NCBI GenBank assembly: GCA_965198225.1
Contig: CBDAOY010000007.1
Span: 862,045-926,044, forward strand
Source of the DNA: Terriglobia bacterium
Lineage (GTDB): Bacteria; Acidobacteriota; Terriglobia; 20CM-2-55-15
Length of the DNA stretch: 64,000 nucleotides
Direction: 5' to 3'
The stretch's first letter is position 1, and every line of letters starts with the position of its first letter. The notes under the pieces were generated by a model. That model was not told the DNA's origin. It saw only the letters and a list, made by a program, of their open reading frames with translations, and searched no databases. Positions 40,028-54,738 of this stretch are shown piece after piece. The position numbers and the translations under genes were made by a program.

Positions 40028-40297
40028 CTATCTATGTCCATCAGATTGGACCAATGAATCCGCCGGGCTCCGGACTCCGCCCGGGCCGCGGTTCAGCACG
40101 TGTGTGTAGACCATCGTTGTGCGAACGTCCTTGTGGCCGAGGAGGTCCTGGACGGTGCGGATGTCATATCCGTCCTCGAGCAGATGAGTCGCGAAGGAGT
40201 GTCTGAATGTGTGACAGGTGGCGGTTTCGCGATGCCGGACCGCGGGACGGCGCTGCGGACGGCCCTTTGGATTACCGACTCATGAAGGTGGTGGCGT
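40028..40297 (-). pseudogene. C-terminal remnant of an integron-integrase-like tyrosine recombinase (IntI/XerD type)
   Basis: The reverse-strand translation reads ..[24 protein letters not shown] / [53 protein letters not shown], carrying the catalytic RHxxxxxLLxxGxDIRTVQxLLGH...TxxYTH box. There is one internal frameshift. The N-terminal ~250 aa are absent and replaced by repeat U1. Confidence 0.7.
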
Positions 40298-40400
40298 GCG
40301 GATAAGCGGAATAAGCAGGGTCTGACGACTATGGTAGCACTGAGATTGTCGTCGCATGGGTGTTATGTCAACCCGCGCGCGGCGGCAGGCCGTCGCGCGG
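40298..40400 (+). repeat. U-repeat copy 1 (~104-bp two-hairpin element)
   Basis: GCGGATAAGCGGAATAAGCAGGGTCTGACGACTATGGTAGCACTGAGATTGTCGTCG.ATGGGTGTTATGTCAACCCGCGCGCGG..GTCGCGCGG. This is 1 of 4 near-identical copies, the others at 42473, 51741 and 51100(-). Confidence 0.8.
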
Positions 40401-42472: not shown

Positions 42473-42576
42473 TGCGGATAAGCGGAATAAGCAGGGTCTG
42501 ACGACTATGGTAGCACTGAGATTGTCGTCGTATGGGTGTTATGTCAACCCGCGCGCGGCCGCAGGCCGTCGCGCGG
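42473..42576 (+). repeat. U-repeat copy 2
   Basis: 104 bp, 2 mismatches to copy 1. Its 3' hairpin supplies the stop-proximal codons of the truncated PD40 ORF. Confidence 0.8.
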
Positions 42577-42976: not shown

Positions 42977-43772
42977 GGAATTGTCAACTTGGGCCCATAA
43001 CTGCCAGACTGGTTCTATGAAATCGACTCGACCCCTCTATCACGGCCACCGTTACCCACGCGAAATCATCAGTCATGCAGTCTGGCTGTATCACAGATTC
43101 GGCATCAGCTTCCGAGATGTGGAAGATCGCCTCGCCGAACGAGGTGTAGTTGTGTCCTACGAGACAATCCGCCAATGGTGCGCGAAGTTCGGTCTCGAAT
43201 ATGTCAGGCGTCTCAAACGACAACAAGGTCGACTCGGAGATACATGGTTCCTGGACGAAGTCTTCGTCACAATCAACGGTGAACGCCAATATCTTTGGCG
43301 CGCCGTGGATCAAGACGGTGACGTGATCGACATCCTCGTCCAGTCCCGACGCAATCGTCGTGCGGCGGAGCGCTTCTTTCGCAAACTCTTGAAGAATCAG
43401 GGAAAGGCGCCGTTCCGCCTCGTTACAGACAAGTTAAAGAGTTACGGCGCGGCGCTCCGGACGATCATGCCTTCGGTGAACCACGACACCGCACAATACG
43501 CGAACAATCGAGCAAAAGTCTCACACCAACCAACGCGACAGAGAGAACGACAAATGCGACGGTTCAAGTCTCCACGACAAGCCCAACTCTTCCTGTCGCT
43601 ACATGGCATAGTTCTGAATCTTTTCCGATTGTCCAGGCACAGACTGAAGGCGGTTCACCACCGTATGCTGCGAGCGCGTTCTTTTGCGACCTGGGAGGCG
43701 GTTACCGTGGGTTGATCGACCCGCGCCGATCCGGCACACGTTCGACCTTCGGACGGCAAGTTGACAGAACCC
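42977..43772 (+). mobile_element. IS6-family (IS26-like) insertion sequence
   Basis: About 800 bp with terminal inverted repeats GGAATTGTCAACTTGGG (42977-42993) and reverse complement of CGGCAAGTTGACAGAACC (43755-43772). Single transposase gene. Confidence 0.8.
43017..43715 (+). CDS. IS6-family transposase
   Basis: MKSTRPLYHGHRYPREIISHAVWLYHRFGISFRDVEDRLAERGVVVSYETIRQW.. matches the IS26/IS6 transposase family in length and motifs. Confidence 0.85.
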   Translation: MKSTRPLYHGHRYPREIISHAVWLYHRFGISFRDVEDRLAERGVVVSYETIRQWCAKFGLEYVRRLKRQQGRLGDTWFLDEVFVTINGERQYLWRAVDQDGDVIDILVQSRRNRRAAERFFRKLLKNQGKAPFRLVTDKLKSYGAALRTIMPSVNHDTAQYANNRAKVSHQPTRQRERQMRRFKSPRQAQLFLSLHGIVLNLFRLSRHRLKAVHHRMLRARSFATWEAVTVG

Positions 43773-43897: not shown

Positions 43898-46165
43898 TCA
43901 GTCGCGGTGCACGAAGACAAACTCGCCGCCCTCGTCGCCGGCCTGGTAGATCACGCCGTACTGTGGCGTGTTGGGGCTGTTGTTGATCACCGCCTGCCGG
44001 AAATCGGCGAACAGTGCGTCGGCGGTGATGTAGCGGCTCGAGTTGTCGGTTAGCCGGTCGGTCAGGTATTGCAGGAAAACGCTCTGGTCCGGAACCTGGG
44101 TGAGCGTGCCGCTGGTCATGGCCTTGCGGCTCGACAGCCGGGCCAGCTCGGTGATCGCCCGGTCCGCGCCCGCGAACGCCGTGCGCGTCTTGAAGATACC
44201 GCCGCTGAAGCAGGCGTCAGAGATCAGCAGCGTGTGCTTACTGTTGATGCCTTTGATCAGGTCGCGGATGTCGCTGTTCGAGATCCATTGGGCGGGATTG
44301 TCCTGCGTGGCGTCGGCCGGCAGCCAGTAGCCCTGTCCGATCTGTTCGTTCCAGATGCCGTGGCCGGCGAAGAAGACGATCACGCTGTCCTTGTCCGTGA
44401 CCCTCAGGCCGAGCTGCTGAAGGCCACGGTAGATCTCGTCTTCGTCCGGATTCTCGAGCCGGGTGACGTTCTGGGCGTCGAAACGATAGCGCTGGACCAG
44501 TACGTTCTCGAGCCGCTGGGCGTCGGAGATGGGATGGTCCAGGTCGTTGACCGCGGGGTTCTCGTAGTCCTGCACAGCGATCAGGAGCGCGTGGTAGGTA
44601 CCTTCGGGCAGCTCGGCCAGCGCGGACTCGTCGGCCGGCTTGAGCCCCCGGTCGCCACCGGGAGTCGGGGCGTCGGGAGGCGGTGCGCCGCCGCTCTCGC
44701 GAACGACGATCAGACGCGCTTCTGCCCAGTTCTGGTGTCGCTGACGCGCACGCGGATCTGGTTCTCGCCGAAGGCCAGGTTCACCTCCCGCCAGAATTCG
44801 CCGCGCGCCGAGACGTTGGCATCCTCGCCGTTGATCAGCACCTCGTAGATGCCGCTCTCGTCCCTGACCGCTCCGGCGACCACGACCCTCTTGGACGGCA
44901 CGGTGATCCGATCGCCGCTTGAGCCTGGTCGGCTGAGCTCAATCTCCGGCGGCCTGACGTCGTTGGTTCTCACGACCACCTCGTCTTCACTCGGCGACGG
45001 GATCTCGGGTCGTGTGGGACGCGGCTCGGCCTCCTCCGGGCTCACCGACGCGACCAGCGTCCGGAGATCGACCGCCTGGACCTTCGAGAAGATGACGTTG
45101 GCCCGGCTGGAGGCGGGATAGCGCGTGTAGCCGCGACCGGACTCGTGGAACCGGAAGACCATGTGGGCAGTGGATCCGCCGCGCGCCAGCTCGCGGTTGG
45201 GGATCGTGTACTCCCACACCGGATGCGGCTTCGCCGAAATGGCGGTGGCTTTGAAGCCGACCGCCAGTGAGGCGCCCGAGGAGAACCCTCCGCACCCGGT
45301 GGAAGAGCCCTCGGTAAGAAGGTACTGGGTACAGATGCTGGTGTAGGTGCCGTTCCTCCTACCGTAGCCGACATCGGTCCTCGCGGCGTCGATGATGCCG
45401 TTCTGGTTGACGTCGACCCGAATGCTGGCGAAGTCGAGCGCGGGGAACTGCCCGCGCAGGTTGTCGGAGGTATCGCCCACCGCCTCCAGCACGAAGGTGG
45501 TCTTGTCGCCCTCGTACTTGGCGATGACAACGTGGCGCTCGTTCTTCTCCAGTACCCGCTCGCTCGCCGTTGTCGGCGGCGTCAGCGAGGCGATGATGAC
45601 CTTCGAGAAGATGACGTTGGCCCGGCTGGAGGCGGGATAGCGCGTGTAGCCGCGACCGGACTCGTGGAACCGGAAGACCATGTGGGCAGTGGATCCGCCG
45701 CGCGCCAGCTCGCGGTTGGGGATCGTGTACTCCCACACCGGATGCGGCTTCGCCGAAATGGCGGTGGCTTTGAAGCCGACCGCCAGTGAGGCGCCCGAGG
45801 AGAACCCTCCGCACCCGGTGGAAGAGCCCTCGGTAAGAAGTACTGGGTACAGATGCTGGTGTAGGTGCCGTTCCTCCTACCGTAGCCGACATCGGTCGGC
45901 GTCGATGATGCCGTTCTGGTTGACGAACCCGAATGCTGGCGAAGTCGAGCGCGGGGAACTGCCCGCGCAGGTTGTCGGAGGTATCGCCCACCGCCTCCAG
46001 CACGAAGGTGGTCTTGTCGCCCTCGTACCTGGCGATGACAACGTGGCGCTCGTTCTTCTCCAGTACCCGCTCGCTCGCCGCCTGTACGCCGGGCGTTGCG
46101 AACAGAGCCAGGATCGCGGTCGCCAAGAGAAGCCGAGTCGCATTGGCGAGAGTCGAACTCATCAA
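43898..46165 (-). pseudogene. Secreted caspase-family (peptidase C14) protein with a tandemly duplicated N-terminal domain; reading frame interrupted in the first repeat
   Basis: Signal peptide MMSSTLANATRLLLATAILALFATPGVQA. Two copies of a ~170-aa module (ERVLEKNERHVVIAKYEGDKTTFVLEAVGDTSD..GGSTAHMVFRFHESGRGYTRYPASSRANVIFSKV) follow. The C-terminal caspase domain has His (FFAGHG) and Cys (LLISDACFSGG). ORFs 45359-46165, 44710-45738 and 43898-44575 are pieces of this one gene. Confidence 0.65.
45081..46085. repeat. Tandem duplication (2 x ~519 bp) inside the caspase-family gene
   Basis: Over 250 bp are identical between 45081-45330 and 45600-45850. The upstream copy (closest to the signal-peptide end of the gene) has 1-, 7- and 2-nt deletions that break the frame. 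Confidence 0.8.
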
Positions 46166-46451: not shown

Positions 46452-47450
46452 CTACTCCCACACATCAAAATTCCCCGCCCAGATCGCATCGATGCGGCCT
46501 GTGCGCCAGCCCGCCACCTTGTCGCGTACCAGCGACGAGGGCAACTCCCGGTAGCGGCGGACGATCGCGGGCGCTTGGTTCTCGGATGCATTCAGCAGTT
46601 CGCGCGCGGTGCGAATCTGGTCTTTACGCCGTGGGCTCGGTGGTTCCGGCTGAGGAGCCACCACGACGCGCGCGCGCACACGGTCGAAACGCGATTCGTC
46701 GATCGGCGATTCCATGACGTGCAGGCCCGATTCACGGGAGAGGATGGCGTAGCTGCCGAAGCCGCCGAGCGAGAAGATTACGCCGTCGGGGCGCTCCCCT
46801 CCCCCGACTGGTAGCTCCGTCAACCGCATGCGGCGGCGCCTGGCCCACTGCCGGTACATGTCCACGGTGTGTGCCAGGAACTCCCGGGCCTGGGGATGAT
46901 CCATGTCCTCGCGCAGCAAGCGAACGCCGAGGAACGCCTGGGTGGGACGCTCGCTGTCCAGGTCCTCGATCCCCTCGTCCAACACGTAGAGCTTCTCCGC
47001 TATCCGCGCGGTGGGTGACGGGCTGTGACCGTTCTGCCGTCGGCGCTCCGCGAGGGAGTTGAGCGCTGCTGCTGCGGACTCGATACGATCCATGAGCTCG
47101 ATCCGATGCAGCACCAGAAAACGGTCCTCCCGGTTCCAGAACCCGTCGCCGTTGATCTCCTTAAGGCCCTCTTCCTTTGCTGCACGCCAGGGCTCGTCGT
47201 CCAAACGCATGACGATATCTTTCACCCGCGATGTGAGAAACGCCTGCTCGTTCGCCGCGCCGGTGGCGTGCAGCATTAGGTGCGTAACCGAGAGCGATGC
47301 CGCAGATGCCTCTGCACCCGCAATCTCCGGAGGCGGTTCCGCTTCGGCGTCGGGATCGATGAACTCCACACGCAGGGTGTTCCCATCGCTGCGCACGAAC
47401 AGGAACTGCTCACCCTCCGGCGCGCGGTTCTCGACGATCGTGATCGACAA
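46452..47450 (-). CDS. Peptide-chain-release-factor-2-like protein lacking the GGQ catalytic segment
   Basis: 332 aa. HTVDMYRQWARRRRMRLTEL..GVIFSLGGFGSYAILSRESGLHVMESPIDESRFDRVRARVVVAP aligns to the RF PCRF domain (MYxRWAE..[33 protein letters not shown].P), with an SPI in the SPF position. The C-terminus RRYRELPSSLVRDKVAGWRTGRIDAIWAGNFD matches the RSYNFPQGRVTDHR..LD..L.G.LD tail. The ~45-aa GGQ-bearing region between them is absent. Confidence 0.6.
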   Translation of the reverse strand: MSITIVENRAPEGEQFLFVRSDGNTLRVEFIDPDAEAEPPPEIAGAEASAASLSVTHLMLHATGAANEQAFLTSRVKDIVMRLDDEPWRAAKEEGLKEINGDGFWNREDRFLVLHRIELMDRIESAAAALNSLAERRRQNGHSPSPTARIAEKLYVLDEGIEDLDSERPTQAFLGVRLLREDMDHPQAREFLAHTVDMYRQWARRRRMRLTELPVGGGERPDGVIFSLGGFGSYAILSRESGLHVMESPIDESRFDRVRARVVVAPQPEPPSPRRKDQIRTARELLNASENQAPAIVRRYRELPSSLVRDKVAGWRTGRIDAIWAGNFDVWE

Positions 47451-47479
47451 AGGCGCAAGGAGGCAACGAGAGCTGTGCT

Positions 47480-48290
47480 TGACGATCTGAAGCGTAGATC
47501 GAACACTTTTGAGCGGTGAGAATGCGCTAACAGTGGAAACAAGTGCGACTCCATTGCTTGTTGCCCGATGTACATTACTGGTGCTTTATCTTTCCGAAGA
47601 CGAGAAGCAAGGGGTTATAGTATCCCACGCTTGGGCACATCCAGGTTGTTCCGGACGTAGCGTTGGTCCAAAACGCTCAGGCCGTTCGTAGCCAGGGGCG
47701 ATCTTCCATCCGTGACGTTGTTAAGGTGATCGGGACAAGCAACTTCAGTTTCCTTAGCCAAGACGGACACTGAGGGACTCAGTAGCGAGTTCAATCTCGC
47801 GTGCGGCAGTCGAGCCCTTCCAGAGCCGTTGCTCTCGCAGTACGCGCTTGGTCACTCGAGGGTTCACGGACCAAACTATAGCGGCTACCTGTGGGTCACG
47901 GCCGATAAGGTATTCGAGTTAGGAAGGGCGAGGTGACGTGAGCTCTCGGGCTTGCTGATTACTTGGCCAGTGGCATGAGGCGATCATTGACCATCAGACC
48001 TGAGAAGCCGTGCCGCCACGGCCAGCACGCCAAAGAATTGAGTTCGCGGGCCCGACATTTTTAACAGAGCAACTCCGAGTTGGTTGCGTATTCCGGCGAA
48101 ATCCGCCAGTGATTCCGAAGTGAAAGCCGCCACGATTCCGGGCAAAGCATCCACCCGTCGGAGCGAAGCGACGCTGGGGAGGGTTATCATTTCCGAAGTG
48201 GATGGCTTCGGTCAAACAAGAACCGCGTTTGTGGTGTAATTTTCATCTAACAATTCCTCCTCGAATGTGAATGAATCGCCGGGCCTGTGT
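47480..48290. other. Non-coding ~0.8-kb spacer with lower GC between the RF-like gene and IS21 copy 1
   Basis: Only short, low-complexity ORFs in all six frames. Contains short hairpins (for example CCGAAGCCATCCACTTCGG). I did not recognise tmRNA, RNase P or CRISPR features. Confidence 0.3.
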
Positions 48291-48481
48291 GTAAGTGTGA
48301 ATGGGCTGCGGGTTGTGCGGCCCATTCAAGCCGGTGTGGGAATCCGCGCGTTGTGTAGCGGATTTCCATAGCTGCGGCACTTTCCACAGGCCGATGCCTC
48401 TGTGCTGTTCGCAAGGCAGAAAGTTCCGACCGCGGCGCGGCCTGGGGTCGGAATCTCTGCGGAGCGGTGGTCCACTGAAGG

Positions 48482-49252
48482 CTATCCCTCATTCGGATCA
48501 GGCTCCTTTCTAGCCCGGCTCGGGCCGTTTTTGGACTTTCGCATCGAAGCCCCATCCAGTTCGATGCGATGCGCATTGTGGACCAAGCGGTCGAGGATGC
48601 TATCGGCCAGTGTGGGATCCCCGATCTGATCGTGCCAGTCGGTGATGGGCAACTGACTGGTGAGGATCGTGGATCGGGTGGCGTAACGGTCGTCGCAGAT
48701 TTCCAGGAAGTCGCGGCGTTCGGTGTCGGCGAGCGGCGCGATGGCCCAATCATCGACAAGGAGAACGTCGATTCGGGCAATGCGGTCCAGCAGTTTGACA
48801 AAGCTGCCGTCCGCACGGGCCACGGCTAGGTCGCGCAGCAATCGCGGCGCGCGGGTGTAGAGTGCGGTGAAGCCGTCGCGAACGGCTTTGTGGCCCAGCG
48901 CGCAGCCGAGAAAGCTTTTTCCGACGCCACAGGGTCCGGTGATGATCACGTTCTGATGCTGGGTAACCCAGTCACAGGCGGCCAGGCTGCGGATCAACCC
49001 GCGGTCCAGGCGGCGCGGATGCCGGTAGTCGATGTCTTCGACGGCGGCGTTGATTTTAAACCGGGCGGTCTTCAAGCGACGGGCGAGCGCCCGGTTTGCC
49101 TTCCAATCCCATTGCCGATCCACCAGCAAGGCCAGACGTTGCTCGAAACTGAGCCGGAGGATTTCGGGGTCTTCCATCTGCTGGCCCACCGCCTCGGCCA
49201 TGCCCGTGAGTCGCATCGCATGGAGTTTTTCCAGTGTGGGTTGCATTAGCAT
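48482..49252 (-). CDS. istB: IS21-family helper IstB (AAA+ ATPase)
   Basis: 256 aa starting MLMQPTLEKL, with Walker A GPCGVGKS and Walker B LLVDDW. The start overlaps the istA stop. The 650-aa ORF in the track is a frame run-on through istA. Confidence 0.85.
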   Translation of the reverse strand: MLMQPTLEKLHAMRLTGMAEAVGQQMEDPEILRLSFEQRLALLVDRQWDWKANRALARRLKTARFKINAAVEDIDYRHPRRLDRGLIRSLAACDWVTQHQNVIITGPCGVGKSFLGCALGHKAVRDGFTALYTRAPRLLRDLAVARADGSFVKLLDRIARIDVLLVDDWAIAPLADTERRDFLEICDDRYATRSTILTSQLPITDWHDQIGDPTLADSILDRLVHNAHRIELDGASMRKSKNGPSRARKEPDPNEG

Positions 49253-50808
49253 GACGGTCCCTCCGGAGTCTTGAAGTAATCGGTTCCACGGATATTGGGG
49301 TGTTGAATGGGCGGCCGGACCGGACCGGGTTCCGGCTCGGCCTGCCGATCCAGACCGGTGCCGAGGATCGACCGGACGCTTTGATAGGAGCAGGCATCGA
49401 GTCGGCAGGCGCGGGCCGCGGCGGCTTCCAGCCGATCCGGCCCATAGCTTTGACCCAGACGAAGGATGCCCAAACAGCTGCGGAAGCCTTGTTCGGGATG
49501 GCGGCGCGATTGAAGCACGCGCGCCACCAGTTGGGAGGTGAACGGACCGGTGCTCGATGCCCAGCGGATGAGCCGTTCCGGTGTCCATTCCAGGTAGCGT
49601 TGATGCGCGGCGGGCCGATGCGCATCGACGGTGGTGTGCGCCCCCGCCTTCGAGCTGCGCGGGTGACTGGCTACACGCTGGCCCCGATGAAAGATCTCCA
49701 CGGTCAGGGCCGTGTAGCGCACGTCCAACTGCTGATGCACCAGGGCGTAGGGAGCGCTGTAATAGTGGCCCTCGACCTCGATGTGGTAATCGATGTGGAC
49801 GCGCGCTTTCTTCCATTCGGCGAACGCGTAGCGGTCGGCTGGCAAGCGGCCCAGCGCCGGCCGGTCGAGCGTCTCGAACCGGGTGCGGCGGCTGCCCTCG
49901 AGCTTGCGAAATCTGCGGGCATTGAGCCGGTCCAACAGTTCCGCGATCGCGGCGTTCAGATCGGCCAGGTTGAAGAACGTGCGTTTGCGCAGGACGGCCA
50001 GGATCCACCGTTCCACCAAAAGCACACCCGCCTCGGCCTTCGCCTTGTCCCGGGGTTTGCGCACGCGCGCCGGAATGACAGCGACGCCGTAATGAGCCGC
50101 CATCTCCTGATAGGTCGGATTCAGGTCCGGTTCGTACCGGCAGGGACGGCTGACCGCGCTCTTCAAGTTGTCGGGGACAACGATCTCGGGCACGCCCCCA
50201 AAAAACTCCAATGCACGGATGTGAGAGCCAATCCAACAGGGCAGCTTCTGGCTCCAGGTCGCTTCGGCGAACGTGTAATTGCTGGCGCCCAGGACCGCAA
50301 CGAAGATGGACGCGTCCTGAATGGCTCCCGTCTTCGAATCGACGATCGGGACGGTGTCTCCCGCATAGTCGACGAACAGTTTTTCTCCGGCGCGGTGTTC
50401 TTGCCGCAGAACCCGATCGAGCTTCCGGGCCCATTGCCGGTAGAGTTCACAGAACCGACTGTAGGAATAACCGTCCGGGTTCGACTGCCGGTACTCCTGC
50501 CAGAGCAACTGCAACGTGACATGCTTGTCGCCCCGGAACTCTTCGTGGATCGTCGCCCAATTCGGCGCCGGGCGGTCCGGAGTCAGCGTCACCCGCGGTG
50601 GGAACAGCTGCGTCTCCAATCCCGATTCATCCAGTCCTTCGGGCAACGGCCATCCGAGCCCCGCCACCTCGGCCCGGCGGACATAATCGGCGACTGTGCT
50701 GTGGTTGATCGAACAACTGCGGGCGATCTGGCGGTGACCTAACCCCAGCCCGAACTTGAGTCGTAGAACTTCTTTGATCTTTCGCATGGACAATCTCTCT
50801 GCAGGCAC
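49246..50808 (-). CDS. istA: IS21-family transposase IstA
   Basis: 520 aa with an N-terminal HTH (MPAERLSMRKIKEVLRLKFGLGLGHRQIARSCSIN) and an IS21 DDE core. Confidence 0.85.
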   Translation of the reverse strand: MPAERLSMRKIKEVLRLKFGLGLGHRQIARSCSINHSTVADYVRRAEVAGLGWPLPEGLDESGLETQLFPPRVTLTPDRPAPNWATIHEEFRGDKHVTLQLLWQEYRQSNPDGYSYSRFCELYRQWARKLDRVLRQEHRAGEKLFVDYAGDTVPIVDSKTGAIQDASIFVAVLGASNYTFAEATWSQKLPCWIGSHIRALEFFGGVPEIVVPDNLKSAVSRPCRYEPDLNPTYQEMAAHYGVAVIPARVRKPRDKAKAEAGVLLVERWILAVLRKRTFFNLADLNAAIAELLDRLNARRFRKLEGSRRTRFETLDRPALGRLPADRYAFAEWKKARVHIDYHIEVEGHYYSAPYALVHQQLDVRYTALTVEIFHRGQRVASHPRSSKAGAHTTVDAHRPAAHQRYLEWTPERLIRWASSTGPFTSQLVARVLQSRRHPEQGFRSCLGILRLGQSYGPDRLEAAAARACRLDACSYQSVRSILGTGLDRQAEPEPGPVRPPIQHPNIRGTDYFKTPEGPSC

Positions 50809-51099: not shown

Positions 51100-51201
51100 C
51101 CGCGCGACAGCCTGCGGCCGCGCGCGGGTCGACATAACGCCCATACGACGACAATTCAGCCCTACCATAGTCGTCAGACCCTGCTTGTGCCGCTTATCCG
51201 C
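51100..51201 (-). repeat. U-repeat copy 4 (inverted orientation, most diverged), abutting the IS21 copy-1 end
   Basis: Its reverse complement reads GCGGATAAGCGGCACAAGCAGGGTCTGACGACTATGGTAGGGCTGAATTGTCGTCGTATGGGCGTTATGTCGACCCGCGCGCGGCCGCAGGCTGTCGCGCGG. Confidence 0.75.
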
Positions 51202-51567
51202 AGGTGAGCGCCCTGGACATCGTGACGTGGGCCGGAGCATGTGCCACTCTTCTCGCCGCCTCTATCGCGGCGGGATACTTACCTGGGAACGCGCTGCTCG
51301 GACCGACCCGAAGGCGGCACTCAGAGCCGAGTAGCCCCGGCCCTAGCGCCAACGTGCAGGTCCGTCAGGCGATAGGTCCTGCCTTGTCGCCTCGCGTTTA
51401 GGGATGGTCAAGCAGTGCACGGCTATTTGGCCAAGTGAGTTTAGTTGCTCCGTAACATTGACCCGGGTTCCCAAGCTGACGACGAAGCCTTCAGGCGTTC
51501 GCAAATCCTGTGGCTCTCACGGAGGACTTGCTGTTTGTGTTGCGGTAACGCACTCGGGACACTGGGC

Positions 51568-51740: not shown

Positions 51741-51823
51741 GCGGATAAGCGGAATAAGCAGGGTCTGACGACTATGGTAGCACTGAGATTGTCGTCGTAT
51801 GGGTGTTATGTCAACCCGCGCGG
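51741..51823 (+). repeat. U-repeat copy 3 (3'-truncated, lacks the terminal GC hairpin)
   Basis: The first 83 bp are identical to copy 2. The element ends at CCCGCGCGG. Confidence 0.8.
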
Positions 51824-51919
51824 GGATTCAAGGCAGGATGTTCCGGGCAGGCGGCAGATTCAAGGCAGTTTTCCGTCTTGCGGAGACACACCCGTCCCGC
51901 GGCGTCGTGACGTCGACGT

Positions 51920-52345: not shown

Positions 52346-53986
52346 ATGAGCAATGTCTTGAGCACAGAAAAGAGAGAGCAAGTTGTTGCATTGGGGCGGC
52401 TTGGATGGCCGCTGCGTCGGATCGAACAGACCACCGGCGTGCGTCGTGAGACGGCCAGTGCGTATCTGAGAGCGGCCGGAATCCCCATTCGGCCGCCCGG
52501 GAGTTGGGGCCGGCGACCGGCAAAACCGGCCAACGAGGTGACCACCGACCCGGACGGCGTAAATGGTGTCGTTGAGGGGTTTGGCGGTTCCGATACTTCA
52601 AAACCGGCCAACGAAGTGACCACCGACCCGGAGGCCGAGAATCCGGTCTCGGCAGAGTCGTCGGCTCCCCCTCCAAGCCCACCGTCGGGCAGTTCCTGCG
52701 AGCCGTACCGGGAGACCATCCAACAGGCGCTGGAGCGTGGCCGCAACGCGATGGCGATCTGGCAGGACCTGGTCACGGATCACGGTTTTGTCGGCAGCTA
52801 CGAATCGGTCAAGCGTTTCGTTCGCAAACTCCGGGGAGTGCGATCCCCGGAAGCGGTCGGAATCATCCAGACCGGAGCTGGAGAGGAAGCGCAGGTCGAC
52901 TACGGGACCGGACCGATGGTCCGGGATCCGAAGACGGGCAAGTACCGACGGACGCGGCTGTTCGTGATGACGTTGGGCTACAGCCGCAAATCGGTCCGGC
53001 TGCTGACGTTCAAGTCCAGTTCCCGCATCTGGGCCCAGTTGCACGAGACCGCGTTCCGCCGACTCGGCGGCACTCCCCGCCTCATCGTGCTGGATAACCT
53101 GCGCGAAGGCGTGATCGTCCCGGACCATTACGACCCCACCCTGAATCCGTTGTTTCGAGATGTCCTGACCCATTACGGCGTGGTGGCCATGCCATGCCGG
53201 GTGCGCGATCCAGACCGCAAAGGCAAAGTCGAATCCGGTGTCGGGCACGCCCAGAAGACCCCATTGAAGGGACAGCGCTTCGAGAGCCTCGACCAGGCCC
53301 AGGGGTATCTGGATCGCTGGGAAGTCCGATGGGCCGACACCCGCATCCACGGCACGACCAAGCGGCAGGTGGCGGCCATGTTCGCCGAAGAGAAACCATC
53401 TCTTAAGCCGCTGCCGATCGAACCGTTTCGCTATTACCAATTCGGTGAACGTGTCGTCCATCTCGACGGTTGCGTCGAAGTCGAAGCCGCCTATTACAGT
53501 GTACCGCCGGGCTGGATCGGACGGGGTGTCAAGGTCCAGTGGGACACGCTTCACGTCCGGATCCTGGACCCAAACACCTATCCACTCCTCCGCGAGCATG
53601 TCCGCCAGAAGCGGGGTGGATACCGTGTCCGTGCTGAAGACAACCCGAAGAAAACCCCGTTAACGACGGTGCAACTGCTGGCCCGAGCCCGCCGCGCTGG
53701 CACCCACATCGGCACACTCTGTGACGCCATTCACCGCCGACAAGGGGAAGCTGCGGTCCGCCGCATCCTGGGTGTGCTCTCCCTGGCCAAGAAGTACGGT
53801 GTCTCCGCCGTGGAGGATGCTTCGGCTGCGGCACTGGAACTCCACGTCTACGAGTATCGTTTCGTCCGCCGCTATCTGGAGCGGCGACCTCCACTCGCCC
53901 TGCGTCAGGTCGATCCTCTCATTCGCGAACTGACTCAGTATCGCGATCTCATCAACCTCAAAATCCAGGAGCAGGAACACTCATGA
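52346..53986 (+). CDS. istA: IS21-family transposase IstA (copy 2)
   Basis: 546 aa with an N-terminal HTH and DDE core. The ends of the C-terminal region overlap istB by 4 nt. Confidence 0.85.
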   Translation: MSNVLSTEKREQVVALGRLGWPLRRIEQTTGVRRETASAYLRAAGIPIRPPGSWGRRPAKPANEVTTDPDGVNGVVEGFGGSDTSKPANEVTTDPEAENPVSAESSAPPPSPPSGSSCEPYRETIQQALERGRNAMAIWQDLVTDHGFVGSYESVKRFVRKLRGVRSPEAVGIIQTGAGEEAQVDYGTGPMVRDPKTGKYRRTRLFVMTLGYSRKSVRLLTFKSSSRIWAQLHETAFRRLGGTPRLIVLDNLREGVIVPDHYDPTLNPLFRDVLTHYGVVAMPCRVRDPDRKGKVESGVGHAQKTPLKGQRFESLDQAQGYLDRWEVRWADTRIHGTTKRQVAAMFAEEKPSLKPLPIEPFRYYQFGERVVHLDGCVEVEAAYYSVPPGWIGRGVKVQWDTLHVRILDPNTYPLLREHVRQKRGGYRVRAEDNPKKTPLTTVQLLARARRAGTHIGTLCDAIHRRQGEAAVRRILGVLSLAKKYGVSAVEDASAAALELHVYEYRFVRRYLERRPPLALRQVDPLIRELTQYRDLINLKIQEQEHS

Positions 53987-54738
53987 ATCTGATCGAACTC
54001 CAGCGGGCTCTCCGACAACTCCGGCTCGGCGGCATTGCCGAGGTGTTGGAAACACGCCTCCACCAGGCCCAGACCGAAGCCATGGCGCCGATCGACTTGG
54101 TCTCTCGTCTGGTCTCGGATGAACTGGACCGTCGCAGCATCCGGTTGTTGGAACGGCGTCGGAAACAGGCCCGGTTCCGCGATCCCCAGAAGACGCTCGA
54201 CTCCTTCGACTTTACTTTCAACAAGAAGATGAATCGTAGTCTGGTCTTCGACCTGGCGACGGGCGCCTTCATCTCCAGGCACGACGATGCCTTGTTTCTC
54301 GGTCCTCCTGGCACCGGCAAGAGTCATCTGGCTCAGGCCATCGGCTTGGCTGCGATTGAGCAGGGCTATCGGGTCGTCTACCGTGAAACTCATGCGCTTC
54401 TCGACGACATCGCCGAAGCCACCATTGACGGTACCCGAAAGGAGTGCATGGAAGCTTTGGCGACGGTCCCGCTGCTGATCATCGACGATCTGGGGATGCG
54501 GAAGCTTCCTCCCACTGCAGCAGAGGAACTCCTCGAGATCGTGATGCGACGCTATGAACGGACCAGTACGTTACTGACATCGAATCGACCCGTCCAAGAC
54601 TGGGGAAAACTACTGGGTGATAGCGCCGCCGTCACAGCCATGCTGGACCGGCTGCTCCATCACGGCCACATCCTCAAATGCGGCCCTCGGAGTTGGAGGA
54701 CTAAAACGGGCTTGCCGAGTCCAGTCCCAAAGAGGTAG
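53983..54738 (+). CDS. istB: IS21-family helper IstB (copy 2)
   Basis: 251 aa with Walker A GPPGTGKS and Walker B LLIIDDLG. Confidence 0.85.
   Translation: MNLIELQRALRQLRLGGIAEVLETRLHQAQTEAMAPIDLVSRLVSDELDRRSIRLLERRRKQARFRDPQKTLDSFDFTFNKKMNRSLVFDLATGAFISRHDDALFLGPPGTGKSHLAQAIGLAAIEQGYRVVYRETHALLDDIAEATIDGTRKECMEALATVPLLIIDDLGMRKLPPTAAEELLEIVMRRYERTSTLLTSNRPVQDWGKLLGDSAAVTAMLDRLLHHGHILKCGPRSWRTKTGLPSPVPKR

Follow-up and report, generated by a model that had tools for sequence, protein, structure and literature searches.

A Release-Factor-2-Like Open Reading Frame Without GGQ in a Terriglobia Genome, Probably the 3′ Remnant of a Clp-Type AAA+ ATPase Gene

A 332-Codon Open Reading Frame With Release-Factor-Like Segments

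The DNA analyzed here (hereafter the window) is a 64-kb stretch of contig CBDAOY010000007.1 from a Terriglobia bacterium. Its reverse strand carries a 332-codon open reading frame (ORF) that a first reading, made from the letters of the DNA without database searches (the sequence-only reading), had described as a stand-alone paralog of release factor 2 (RF2) lacking the GGQ segment. The RF2-like scaffold without GGQ was borne out by our analysis, whereas the stand-alone 332-aa paralog was not, as every relative that could be verified is the C-terminal module of a ~1,100–1,200-aa Clp/Hsp100-type double-AAA+ protein. The ORF and its segments are the following:

46452–47450 (−): 332-codon ORF with a TTG start and its stop codon at 46452–46454; matches residues ~862–1199 of L006, the closest full-length homolog

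47349–47450 (−): ORF residues 1–34, the last β-hairpin of a ClpB-type D2-small domain (PEGEQFLFVRSDG..LRVEFIDPD), orphaned through truncation

47295–47348 (−): ORF residues 35–52, a disordered linker, acidic and rich in Ala and Pro, that joins the AAA+ body to the release factor (RF)-like module

46956–47294 (−): ORF residues 53–165, an RF2 domain-1-like helical bundle; profile alignment to RF2 residues 7–120, model helices across 55–165

46653–46955 (−): ORF residues 166–266, RF domain-2-like (PCRF core), with α5 “MYRQWARRRRM,” “GGFGSYAILSRESGLHV” and the loop “ESPIDESRFDR,” lacking the GGxE tip and the SPF and His-Thr elements

46575–46652 (−): ORF residues 267–292, a Pro-rich linker and one helix (275–290) in the place of RF domain 3 (GGQ)

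46455–46574 (−): ORF residues 293–332, an RF domain-4-like tail “IVRRYRELPSSLVRDKVAGWRTGRIDAIWAGNFDVWE,” where conservation within the family is highest; aligned to the RF2 C-terminal tail

The first 34 residues have nothing RF-like about them, and their Clp origin was recognized from the family alignment and from L006 aligned to ClpB (“EGDRVQVDV...”). PF10431 is carried by P0001 and other members, and the hairpin appears as strands 16–21 and 26–31 in the model of the window protein. Linker residues 37–50 had a predicted local distance difference test score (pLDDT) below 50 in the same model, the family varies there in both length and sequence, and the equivalent residues 817–833 are disordered in a full-length model. 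In the domain-1-like bundle, W88, K92, F104-W105, R110, E118, and D121-R122 occupy invariant columns, giving the signature “FW...R...E..DR.” The frame is unbroken over all 332 codons, and every family-invariant residue is present. A scan for promoters and terminators around the ORF yielded nothing meaningful.

Homology of the Module to RF2

Searched by itself, the ORF matched Pfam PCRF at E = 0.006 (16.8 bits against a gathering score of 24) and TIGR prfB at E = 0.037 (13 bits against a cut-off of 370), while a PDB search returned RF1 at E = 0.009 through the same MYRQWARRRRMRLTEL / MYSRYAEARRWRVEIM alignment that the sequence-only reading had quoted. That reading was to be given up if no significant PCRF/RF-1 match existed; since the ORF alone was borderline by this standard, homologs were gathered. 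A family profile of 25 sequences, cut to the span of the window ORF, matched RF2 in the PDB at E = 3.5e-16, with profile positions 68–274 corresponding to RF2 residues 7–219 (domains 1 and 2) and a second stretch, “IVRRYRExPSPLVRD..WRTGRLD.VL.GDFD,” falling on the RF2 C-terminal tail. Of five full-length members, three scored above the Pfam gathering threshold for PCRF.

An AlphaFold2 model of the window protein, made with the family alignment (pLDDT 86.3, predicted template modeling score 0.79), has the RF fold, with a helical domain 1 and a β-sheet superdomain 2/4, and all 50 of its top Foldseek matches in the PDB were RF2 or RF1 (best E = 6e-11). The RF2 homology of the module is thus real, at an identity of only 16–19%, and the retained parts are the helical domain 1 (~53–165), the domain-2 core (the “MY..W” α5 and the “E.G.H” strand), and domain 4. 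The PCRF and C-terminal-tail alignments proposed from the letters alone are therefore upheld, the former being weak for the ORF by itself, significant with the family profile and in agreement with the structure prediction that had been called for. The proposal of an N-terminal ~150 aa unlike RF domain 1 conflicts with both the profile alignment and the modeled helical bundle at residues 53–165.

Absence of the GGQ Domain and of the Stop-Codon-Reading Elements

PF00472 (RF-1) matched neither the window ORF nor the full-length members. From the last domain-2 strand to “IRSY,” RF2 has ~103 residues and the family profile ~32 positions; with no PF00472 match and no catalytic loop, the GGQ segment is indeed missing in frame, although the net gap amounts to ~70 residues and not the ~45 first estimated. 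Fifty members were inspected for the motifs themselves. None has GGQ at the domain-3 site (four chance GGQ tripeptides occur elsewhere), and none has GG.E at the tip of α5, in agreement with the earlier observation that the first GxGG motif of PCRF is replaced. At the tripeptide position, the residue preceding the conserved Pro is variable (T15/V11/I6/S6/A5) and the one following it ([R/D/G...]) is never Phe, and the His-Thr of the next RF2 strand aligns to variable residues. The elements by which stop codons are read (GGxE; SPF of RF2 or PxT of RF1; His-Thr) are accordingly lacking.

The window protein does contain “SPI,” which had been equated with the SPF of RF2. It is one of 6 of the 50 members with Ser at this position, the equation needs a 2-residue shift in the hidden Markov model (HMM) alignment, and neither the Ser nor the Phe position is conserved. 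Because the family conserves only “E.P.....F.R” in this loop, we regard the tripeptide as a coincidence. The suggested binding of stop codons in the A site is correspondingly weakened, none of the three RF2 elements being conserved. Given that both defining features examined, the GGQ domain and the stop-codon-reading elements, are missing, the module is not a release factor, and since the absence of GGQ is common to the whole family, it is not an assembly deletion. No canonical RF genes were found in the window.

A Widespread Clp-Type AAA+ Family With the Module at Its C-Terminus

A search of a 5.8-billion-protein collection recovered 61 relatives (E = 8e-216 to 1e-17), and almost all of those not cut by short contigs carry PF07724 AAA_2 and PF10431 ClpB_D2-small N-terminal to the module. 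With each GTDB species represented by one genome, 440 loci were found to encode relatives. The closest are from Gemmatimonadota (Longimicrobiales; 52–57% identity), and other carriers include Acidobacteriota, Pseudomonadota, Woeseiaceae, Burkholderiales, Planctomycetota, Desulfobacterota, and Calditrichota (Calditrichia), among others. Of 60 loci examined, ~55 show a frame that runs unbroken for ~1,100–1,330 codons and ends in the module. HMMER, run exhaustively over 1.84 billion cluster representatives, gave 431 clusters (50% identity) at E ≤ 1e-30; in the best 150 of these, the protein invariably ends with the module, and most are between 1,050 and 1,230 aa long. Examples of full-length members, both outside the window, are L006 473–4036 and P0062. 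The public records name family members only “AAA family ATPase.”

By Pfam and NCBIfam, full-length members consist of an unmatched N-terminal region of ~250–350 aa followed by AAA (D1), AAA_2 (D2), ClpB_D2-small, and PCRF, and they match ClpA and ClpB partially, with ~300 bits against NCBIfam cut-offs of 993–1232 bits. A full-length model (pLDDT 86.3) comprises an all-α N-domain (residues 1–~240), D1, D2 with a disordered loop at 673–681, a D2-small domain ending in a β-hairpin at 795–810, the disordered linker at 817–833, and the RF-like module. The N-terminal domain has no Pfam or PDB sequence match. The window ORF bears the family signature (FW..R, MY..W, E.G.H..E.P, IVRRYR..PSPLVRD..WRTGR) with all invariant columns kept, and scores 424 bits with the family HMM. 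It lacks the D1, D2, and complete D2-small that precede the module elsewhere; as the window encodes only residues ~862–1199, the ORF is a fragment of a family member and not a complete one.

No stand-alone GGQ-less member could be verified among the 431 clusters or the 60 genomic loci. One candidate, P0043, was rejected as its gene is cut by a contig end, and five more (P0050, P0021, P0031, P0061, and P0040) are full-length genes that frameshifts have split in long-read assemblies, their AAA+ parts lying directly upstream. The sequence-only reading had raised the prospect of GGQ-less RF paralogs recurring in other genomes with conserved neighbors; wherever this could be verified, the homologs are fused to AAA+ domains. 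In five loci from long-read metagenome assemblies (L002, L004, L005, L086, and L093; ENA ERZ250395xx), the family gene lies in 2–10 frame-shifted pieces, and neighboring genes are split likewise (e.g., Peptidase_M20 in L093). These assemblies thus contain systematic indel errors, and short “proteins” from them are not to be counted as truncated genes.

The family is apparently undescribed as well as widespread. We found no AAA+/RF fusion in the literature, though the literature searched may be incomplete; a survey of Clp classes does not mention one, nor does a survey of RF evolution mention an AAA+-fused bacterial RF module (PMC6514570).

AAA+ Motifs of the Intact Members

The state of the AAA+ motifs was read from 50 full-length representatives aligned to ClpB and to the ClpB/ClpA “BAP” chimera. 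In D1, Walker A and the aromatic pore loop (A-G-Q-x-[Y/F]-x-G-x-L-E-x-R) are retained and the catalytic Walker-B Glu is absent, the site reading P-[D/N]-hydrophobic. D2 retains Walker A and B (LLDEFEKA) and the sensor motifs; at the site of its pore-1 loop (GYVG), positions 598–606 are variable and hold no conserved aromatic residue. A disordered loop after the D2 sensor-1, at the position of the ClpA IGL loop, carries [LIV]GF in nearly every representative ([L22/I15/V6/M3]-G49-F49 of 50). The ClpP-docking loop of ClpC is VGF.

Truncation of the Window Copy

In the window, the gene has lost its 5′ part and begins within the Clp D2-small domain. Two features define its upstream edge:

47463/47464 (no strand): rearrangement junction; DNA downstream of it is 100% identical to contig L001 and DNA upstream is unrelated; homology to full-length relatives ends at ~47468

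47465–48481 (no strand): sequence upstream of the junction, largely ORF-free and without AAA+ similarity in any frame; leads into an IS21-family element

When five full-length proteins were compared with the window by tblastn, only residues ~862–1199 were found, at 47468–46455, and no remaining parts of the AAA+ gene turned up elsewhere in the 64 kb in any frame. In the parent gene, the TTG start codon is an internal Leu; in the window it follows “CCTCCTTGCGCCT,” and the in-frame stretch before it is unrelated to the parent gene (“...KHSSRC|LLAPLSITIV”). No Shine-Dalgarno-like sequence precedes it. Because the ORF opens with the last β-hairpin of Clp D2-small (its first 34 residues), its start falls within a folded domain.

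A second copy, on L001, encodes a protein 100% identical to the window ORF, and its DNA matches the window perfectly downstream of 47463 (~1 kb, zero differences) and not at all upstream. This copy is also truncated (389 aa, residues 808–1199) and abuts a TPR-CHAT gene, an arrangement that recurs in L094, assembled independently from a different read set. For a 1.08-Mb NCBI/ENA contig, a 332-aa product identical to that of the window is on record. Between the junction and the IS21-family element, window positions 47575–48247 form ~700 bp with no ORFs of at least 80 aa; nothing similar occurs in L001 or in the rest of the window.

Compared with L089, a partial ortholog 91% identical to it, the window ORF gave a ratio of nonsynonymous to synonymous substitution rates (dN/dS) of 0.075 (dS = 0.63, 137 codons), and the module has therefore been strongly constrained. 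L089 is probably a full-length ortholog; it shares no downstream synteny with the window and has lost its 5′ part to a contig end, and is thus of no use for dating the truncation. The truncated copies in the window and L001, being identical in DNA, hold no signal of selection on the fragment. A further relative, P0002 (257 aa), is 84% identical to the window ORF.

Mobile Elements, Repeats, and Neighboring Genes

The truncated gene lies in a region rich in insertion sequences (IS), with an IS6/IS240 transposase and two IS21-family elements within 12 kb:

48482–50808 (−): IS21-family element, istA at 49246–50808 with an istB-like ORF downstream; flanks the truncated gene

42981–43715 (+): IS6/IS240-family transposase

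52346–54738 (+): second, different IS21-family element (istA and istB)

40297–40400, 42473–42576, 51100–51202, and 51741–51825, with L001 14829–14932 and 18392–18495: ~104-bp dispersed repeat, copies 90–98% identical

45079–45569 and 45598–46080: ~515-bp tandem duplication, sub-blocks 100% and 99% identical at spacings of 519 and 511 nt

43898–44575 (−): Peptidase_C14 (caspase-like) ORF, ~1.9 kb from the 332-codon ORF, beyond a frame-broken, internally duplicated secreted-protein gene

At the place equivalent to window ~40650, L001 has an additional IS of the Transposase_mut type. The ~104-bp repeat adjoins IS elements and looks like a miniature inverted-repeat transposable element or an IS terminus, and the spurious ORFs within it share “ADKR(H/N)KQGLTTMV.” The ~515-bp duplication sits downstream of the 332-codon ORF in a gene for a signal-peptide-bearing protein, the frames of which are broken across it; the unit is present twice in the window and once in L094, reflecting either copy-number variation or an assembly effect.

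The ORF had been placed directly upstream of a secreted caspase-family protein. The Peptidase_C14 ORF is in fact separated from it by the broken secreted-protein gene. In the L001/L094 haplotype, the 389-aa truncated gene directly follows a TPR-CHAT protease gene (L001 7906–9729; L094 142–1899) and is itself followed by a Peptidase_C14 gene, so that the RF-like remnant is bracketed by two caspase-superfamily genes. No CHAT or caspase neighbors accompany intact family members at 60 other loci, and the caspase link is therefore local only. Clustering of the ±3 neighbors at 60 loci revealed no conserved operon partners, only lineage-specific synteny; the largest neighbor cluster comprises 11 loci from apparently related lineages (mostly Acidobacteriota-type metagenome-assembled genomes). 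The window ORF had no match in PADLOC-DB, where full-length members matched DolB and PDC-M37B just in their generic AAA_2 core, and nothing significant in PHROGs.

Comparison With Known Systems

The module is homologous to domains 1, 2, and 4 of RF2 (PrfB; PF03462 and PF00472), its top structural match, and shares with it the α5 “MYxxWA,” the “ExGxH” strand, and the tail “VRxY...V(R/K)D..RTG...VLxGxxD.” It differs in having one helix instead of domain 3 with GGQ, in not conserving GGxE, SPF, and His-Thr, and in being natively a C-terminal appendage of an AAA+ ATPase, whereas RF2 is a free factor of ~365 aa. The parent protein aligns to ClpA residues 210–720 and to ClpB D2 (~300 bits) and resembles ClpA, ClpC, and ClpB in its D2 Walker A/B and sensor motifs, its D2-small domain, and the [LIV]GF at the place of the ClpA/ClpC ClpP-docking loop. 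Unlike these proteins, it has an unrelated all-α N-domain in place of Clp_N, no M-domain, no Walker-B Glu in D1, no GYVG in D2, and an RF-like tail of ~340 aa; no AAA+ part of it is present in the window.

Other derivatives of the RF2 scaffold are known. The land-plant RF2 homolog mtRF2b/AT3G57190, also called PrfB3, reportedly has a role in stabilizing a chloroplast mRNA. It is listed as having neither GGQ nor the tripeptide nor the codon-recognition motif of the α5 helix (Table 1, PMC3472500). An RF2 scaffold can thus persist once release activity is lost; unlike the module, the plant protein is eukaryotic, organelle-targeted, and stand-alone, arose by an independent duplication, and has no ATPase fusion. 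PrfH (RF-H) is an RF2 paralog that keeps GGQ, lacks domain 1, and rescues damaged ribosomes together with RtcB. Its pattern of domain loss is the opposite of that in the module, which does not belong to PrfH. A functional analogy only can be drawn to Dom34/Pelota–ABCE1 and Vms1–Cdc48, in which an RF-like A-site binder (catalytically dead in Dom34) acts with an ATPase on stalled ribosomes. Dom34 lacks the catalytic Gln, and Vms1 is a partner of Cdc48 (PMC6514570). These systems are archaeal and eukaryotic, their aeRF1 fold is unrelated, and their ATPases are separate polypeptides.

Alternative Explanations of the Locus

Taken together, the ORF is quite probably what remains at the 3′ end of a gene encoding a ~1,100–1,200-aa Clp/Hsp100-type ATPase with an RF2-derived, GGQ-less tail, truncated amid IS elements; the tail of the parent protein would serve to dock it on ribosomes. 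A rearrangement in the IS-rich region would have removed the first ~860 codons, and with them the N-domain, the two AAA+ rings, and the bulk of D2-small. What is left opens at an internal Leu TTG without a recognizable ribosome-binding site and is therefore most likely a non-functional fragment. Less likely is that the truncated 332/389-aa tail, with CHAT and caspase genes beside it, now works on its own as a co-opted decoy that binds ribosomes. Several observations weigh against the remnant explanation or parts of it. The intact 332 codons with all invariant residues mean either that the truncation is recent or that the fragment is still useful, and the 389-aa version, found between TPR-CHAT and caspase genes in two independent assemblies, could be a co-opted stand-alone gene. 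The junction in the window could be an assembly join. As for the parent, ribosome binding by the module is something we infer from homology only, a D2 without an aromatic pore loop fits badly with a simple model of an unfoldase feeding ClpP, and no conserved gene neighborhood at the 60 loci backs any pathway.

If the ORF were instead a stand-alone GGQ-less RF2 paralog that holds the A site without release, as a sensor, decoy, or inhibitor and possibly together with the CHAT/caspase proteases, one would expect just such an intact frame with all family-invariant residues kept and a module whose fold is predicted confidently by itself. Truncated versions of 389 and 332 aa occur in at least three assemblies, the longer one flanked by TPR-CHAT and Peptidase_C14, and RF2 derivatives without GGQ and codon motifs have a precedent in plant mtRF2b/AT3G57190 (PMC3472500). 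We nevertheless consider this explanation unlikely. The ORF begins within Clp D2-small, at the internal Leu TTG after “CCTCCTTGCGCCT” and with no Shine-Dalgarno-like sequence; a verified stand-alone member is wanting in the 431 clusters and the 60 loci; the residues that read stop codons are unconserved; and the CHAT/caspase neighborhood is not seen with intact members. The two truncated versions, moreover, differ at their 5′ ends and are 100% identical in DNA, leaving no evolutionary record of selection.

Somewhat more improbable still is that the junction at 47463/47464 is an artifact, a chimeric join near a repeat or IS, in which case the real genome would have the L001-type arrangement or an intact gene. 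The abrupt change from zero nucleotide differences over ~1 kb downstream to total divergence upstream would suit such a join, as would the IS elements, the ~104-bp repeat, the 515-bp duplication with its copy number varying between assemblies, and the many frameshifts in related long-read assemblies. On the other side stand the identical 332-aa product on the 1.08-Mb NCBI/ENA contig and the fact that the L001/L094 alternative, independently supported, is itself truncated at residue ~808, so that the conclusion of a fragment holds even if the join in the window is wrong. To an ordinary prfB with an internal deletion of the GGQ segment, whether genuine or introduced in assembly, we attach next to no probability. 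RF2 is the best match among solved structures, but identity to it is very low, the TIGR prfB score is far below its cut-off, the N-terminus is Clp-derived, and the GGQ-less organization recurs in hundreds of diverged sequences under purifying selection; the family-wide loss of GGQ (431 clusters; 50 of 50 members inspected) rules this candidate out.

Proposed Role of the Parent Protein and Implications

The natural C-terminus of the parent is formed by RF2-derived domains 1, 2, and 4, with one helix replacing the GGQ-bearing domain 3. Such a tail would no longer read stop codons or hydrolyze peptidyl-tRNA. The basic, RF2-like surfaces of domain 4 and α5, its most conserved parts, appear to be retained, and by homology the tail may act as a codon-independent module that docks on the ribosome at the A site and decoding center. 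Docking could then bring an ATP-driven remodeler to stalled or otherwise aberrant ribosomes, and because the [LIV]GF loop is conserved, this remodeler probably works with ClpP, a coupling that is predicted.

For the locus itself, the annotation that follows is a truncated gene fragment amid IS elements and no longer a stand-alone release-factor paralog of an exotic kind, which averts a false lead. The locus is an ordinary outcome, while the parent family is an unrecognized and unusual variant of two known kinds of protein, its architecture joining two well-studied machines: a Clp/Hsp100 ATPase and an RF scaffold stripped of catalysis and stop-codon reading. The pattern of motifs, with a D1 pore loop lacking the Walker-B Glu, D2 Walker A/B lacking the pore loop, and a loop of the ClpP-docking type, is relevant to the mechanism of AAA+ proteins. 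Known bacterial routes of ribosome rescue and quality control include tmRNA, ArfA/ArfB, RqcH, and PrfH. We suggest, tentatively and as a less than even prospect, that a Clp-type AAA+ machine is covalently tethered to a catalytically dead, codon-blind RF2 mimic in ~440 GTDB species (431 clusters) and that, if the tail docks in the A site, it may be a single-polypeptide bacterial counterpart of Dom34–ABCE1 or Vms1–Cdc48, driven by ATP, possibly coupled to ClpP, and acting on ribosomes that are stalled or damaged. If true, an AAA+ enzyme guided to the ribosome by an RF mimic would represent a new class of player in bacterial ribosome rescue and quality control.

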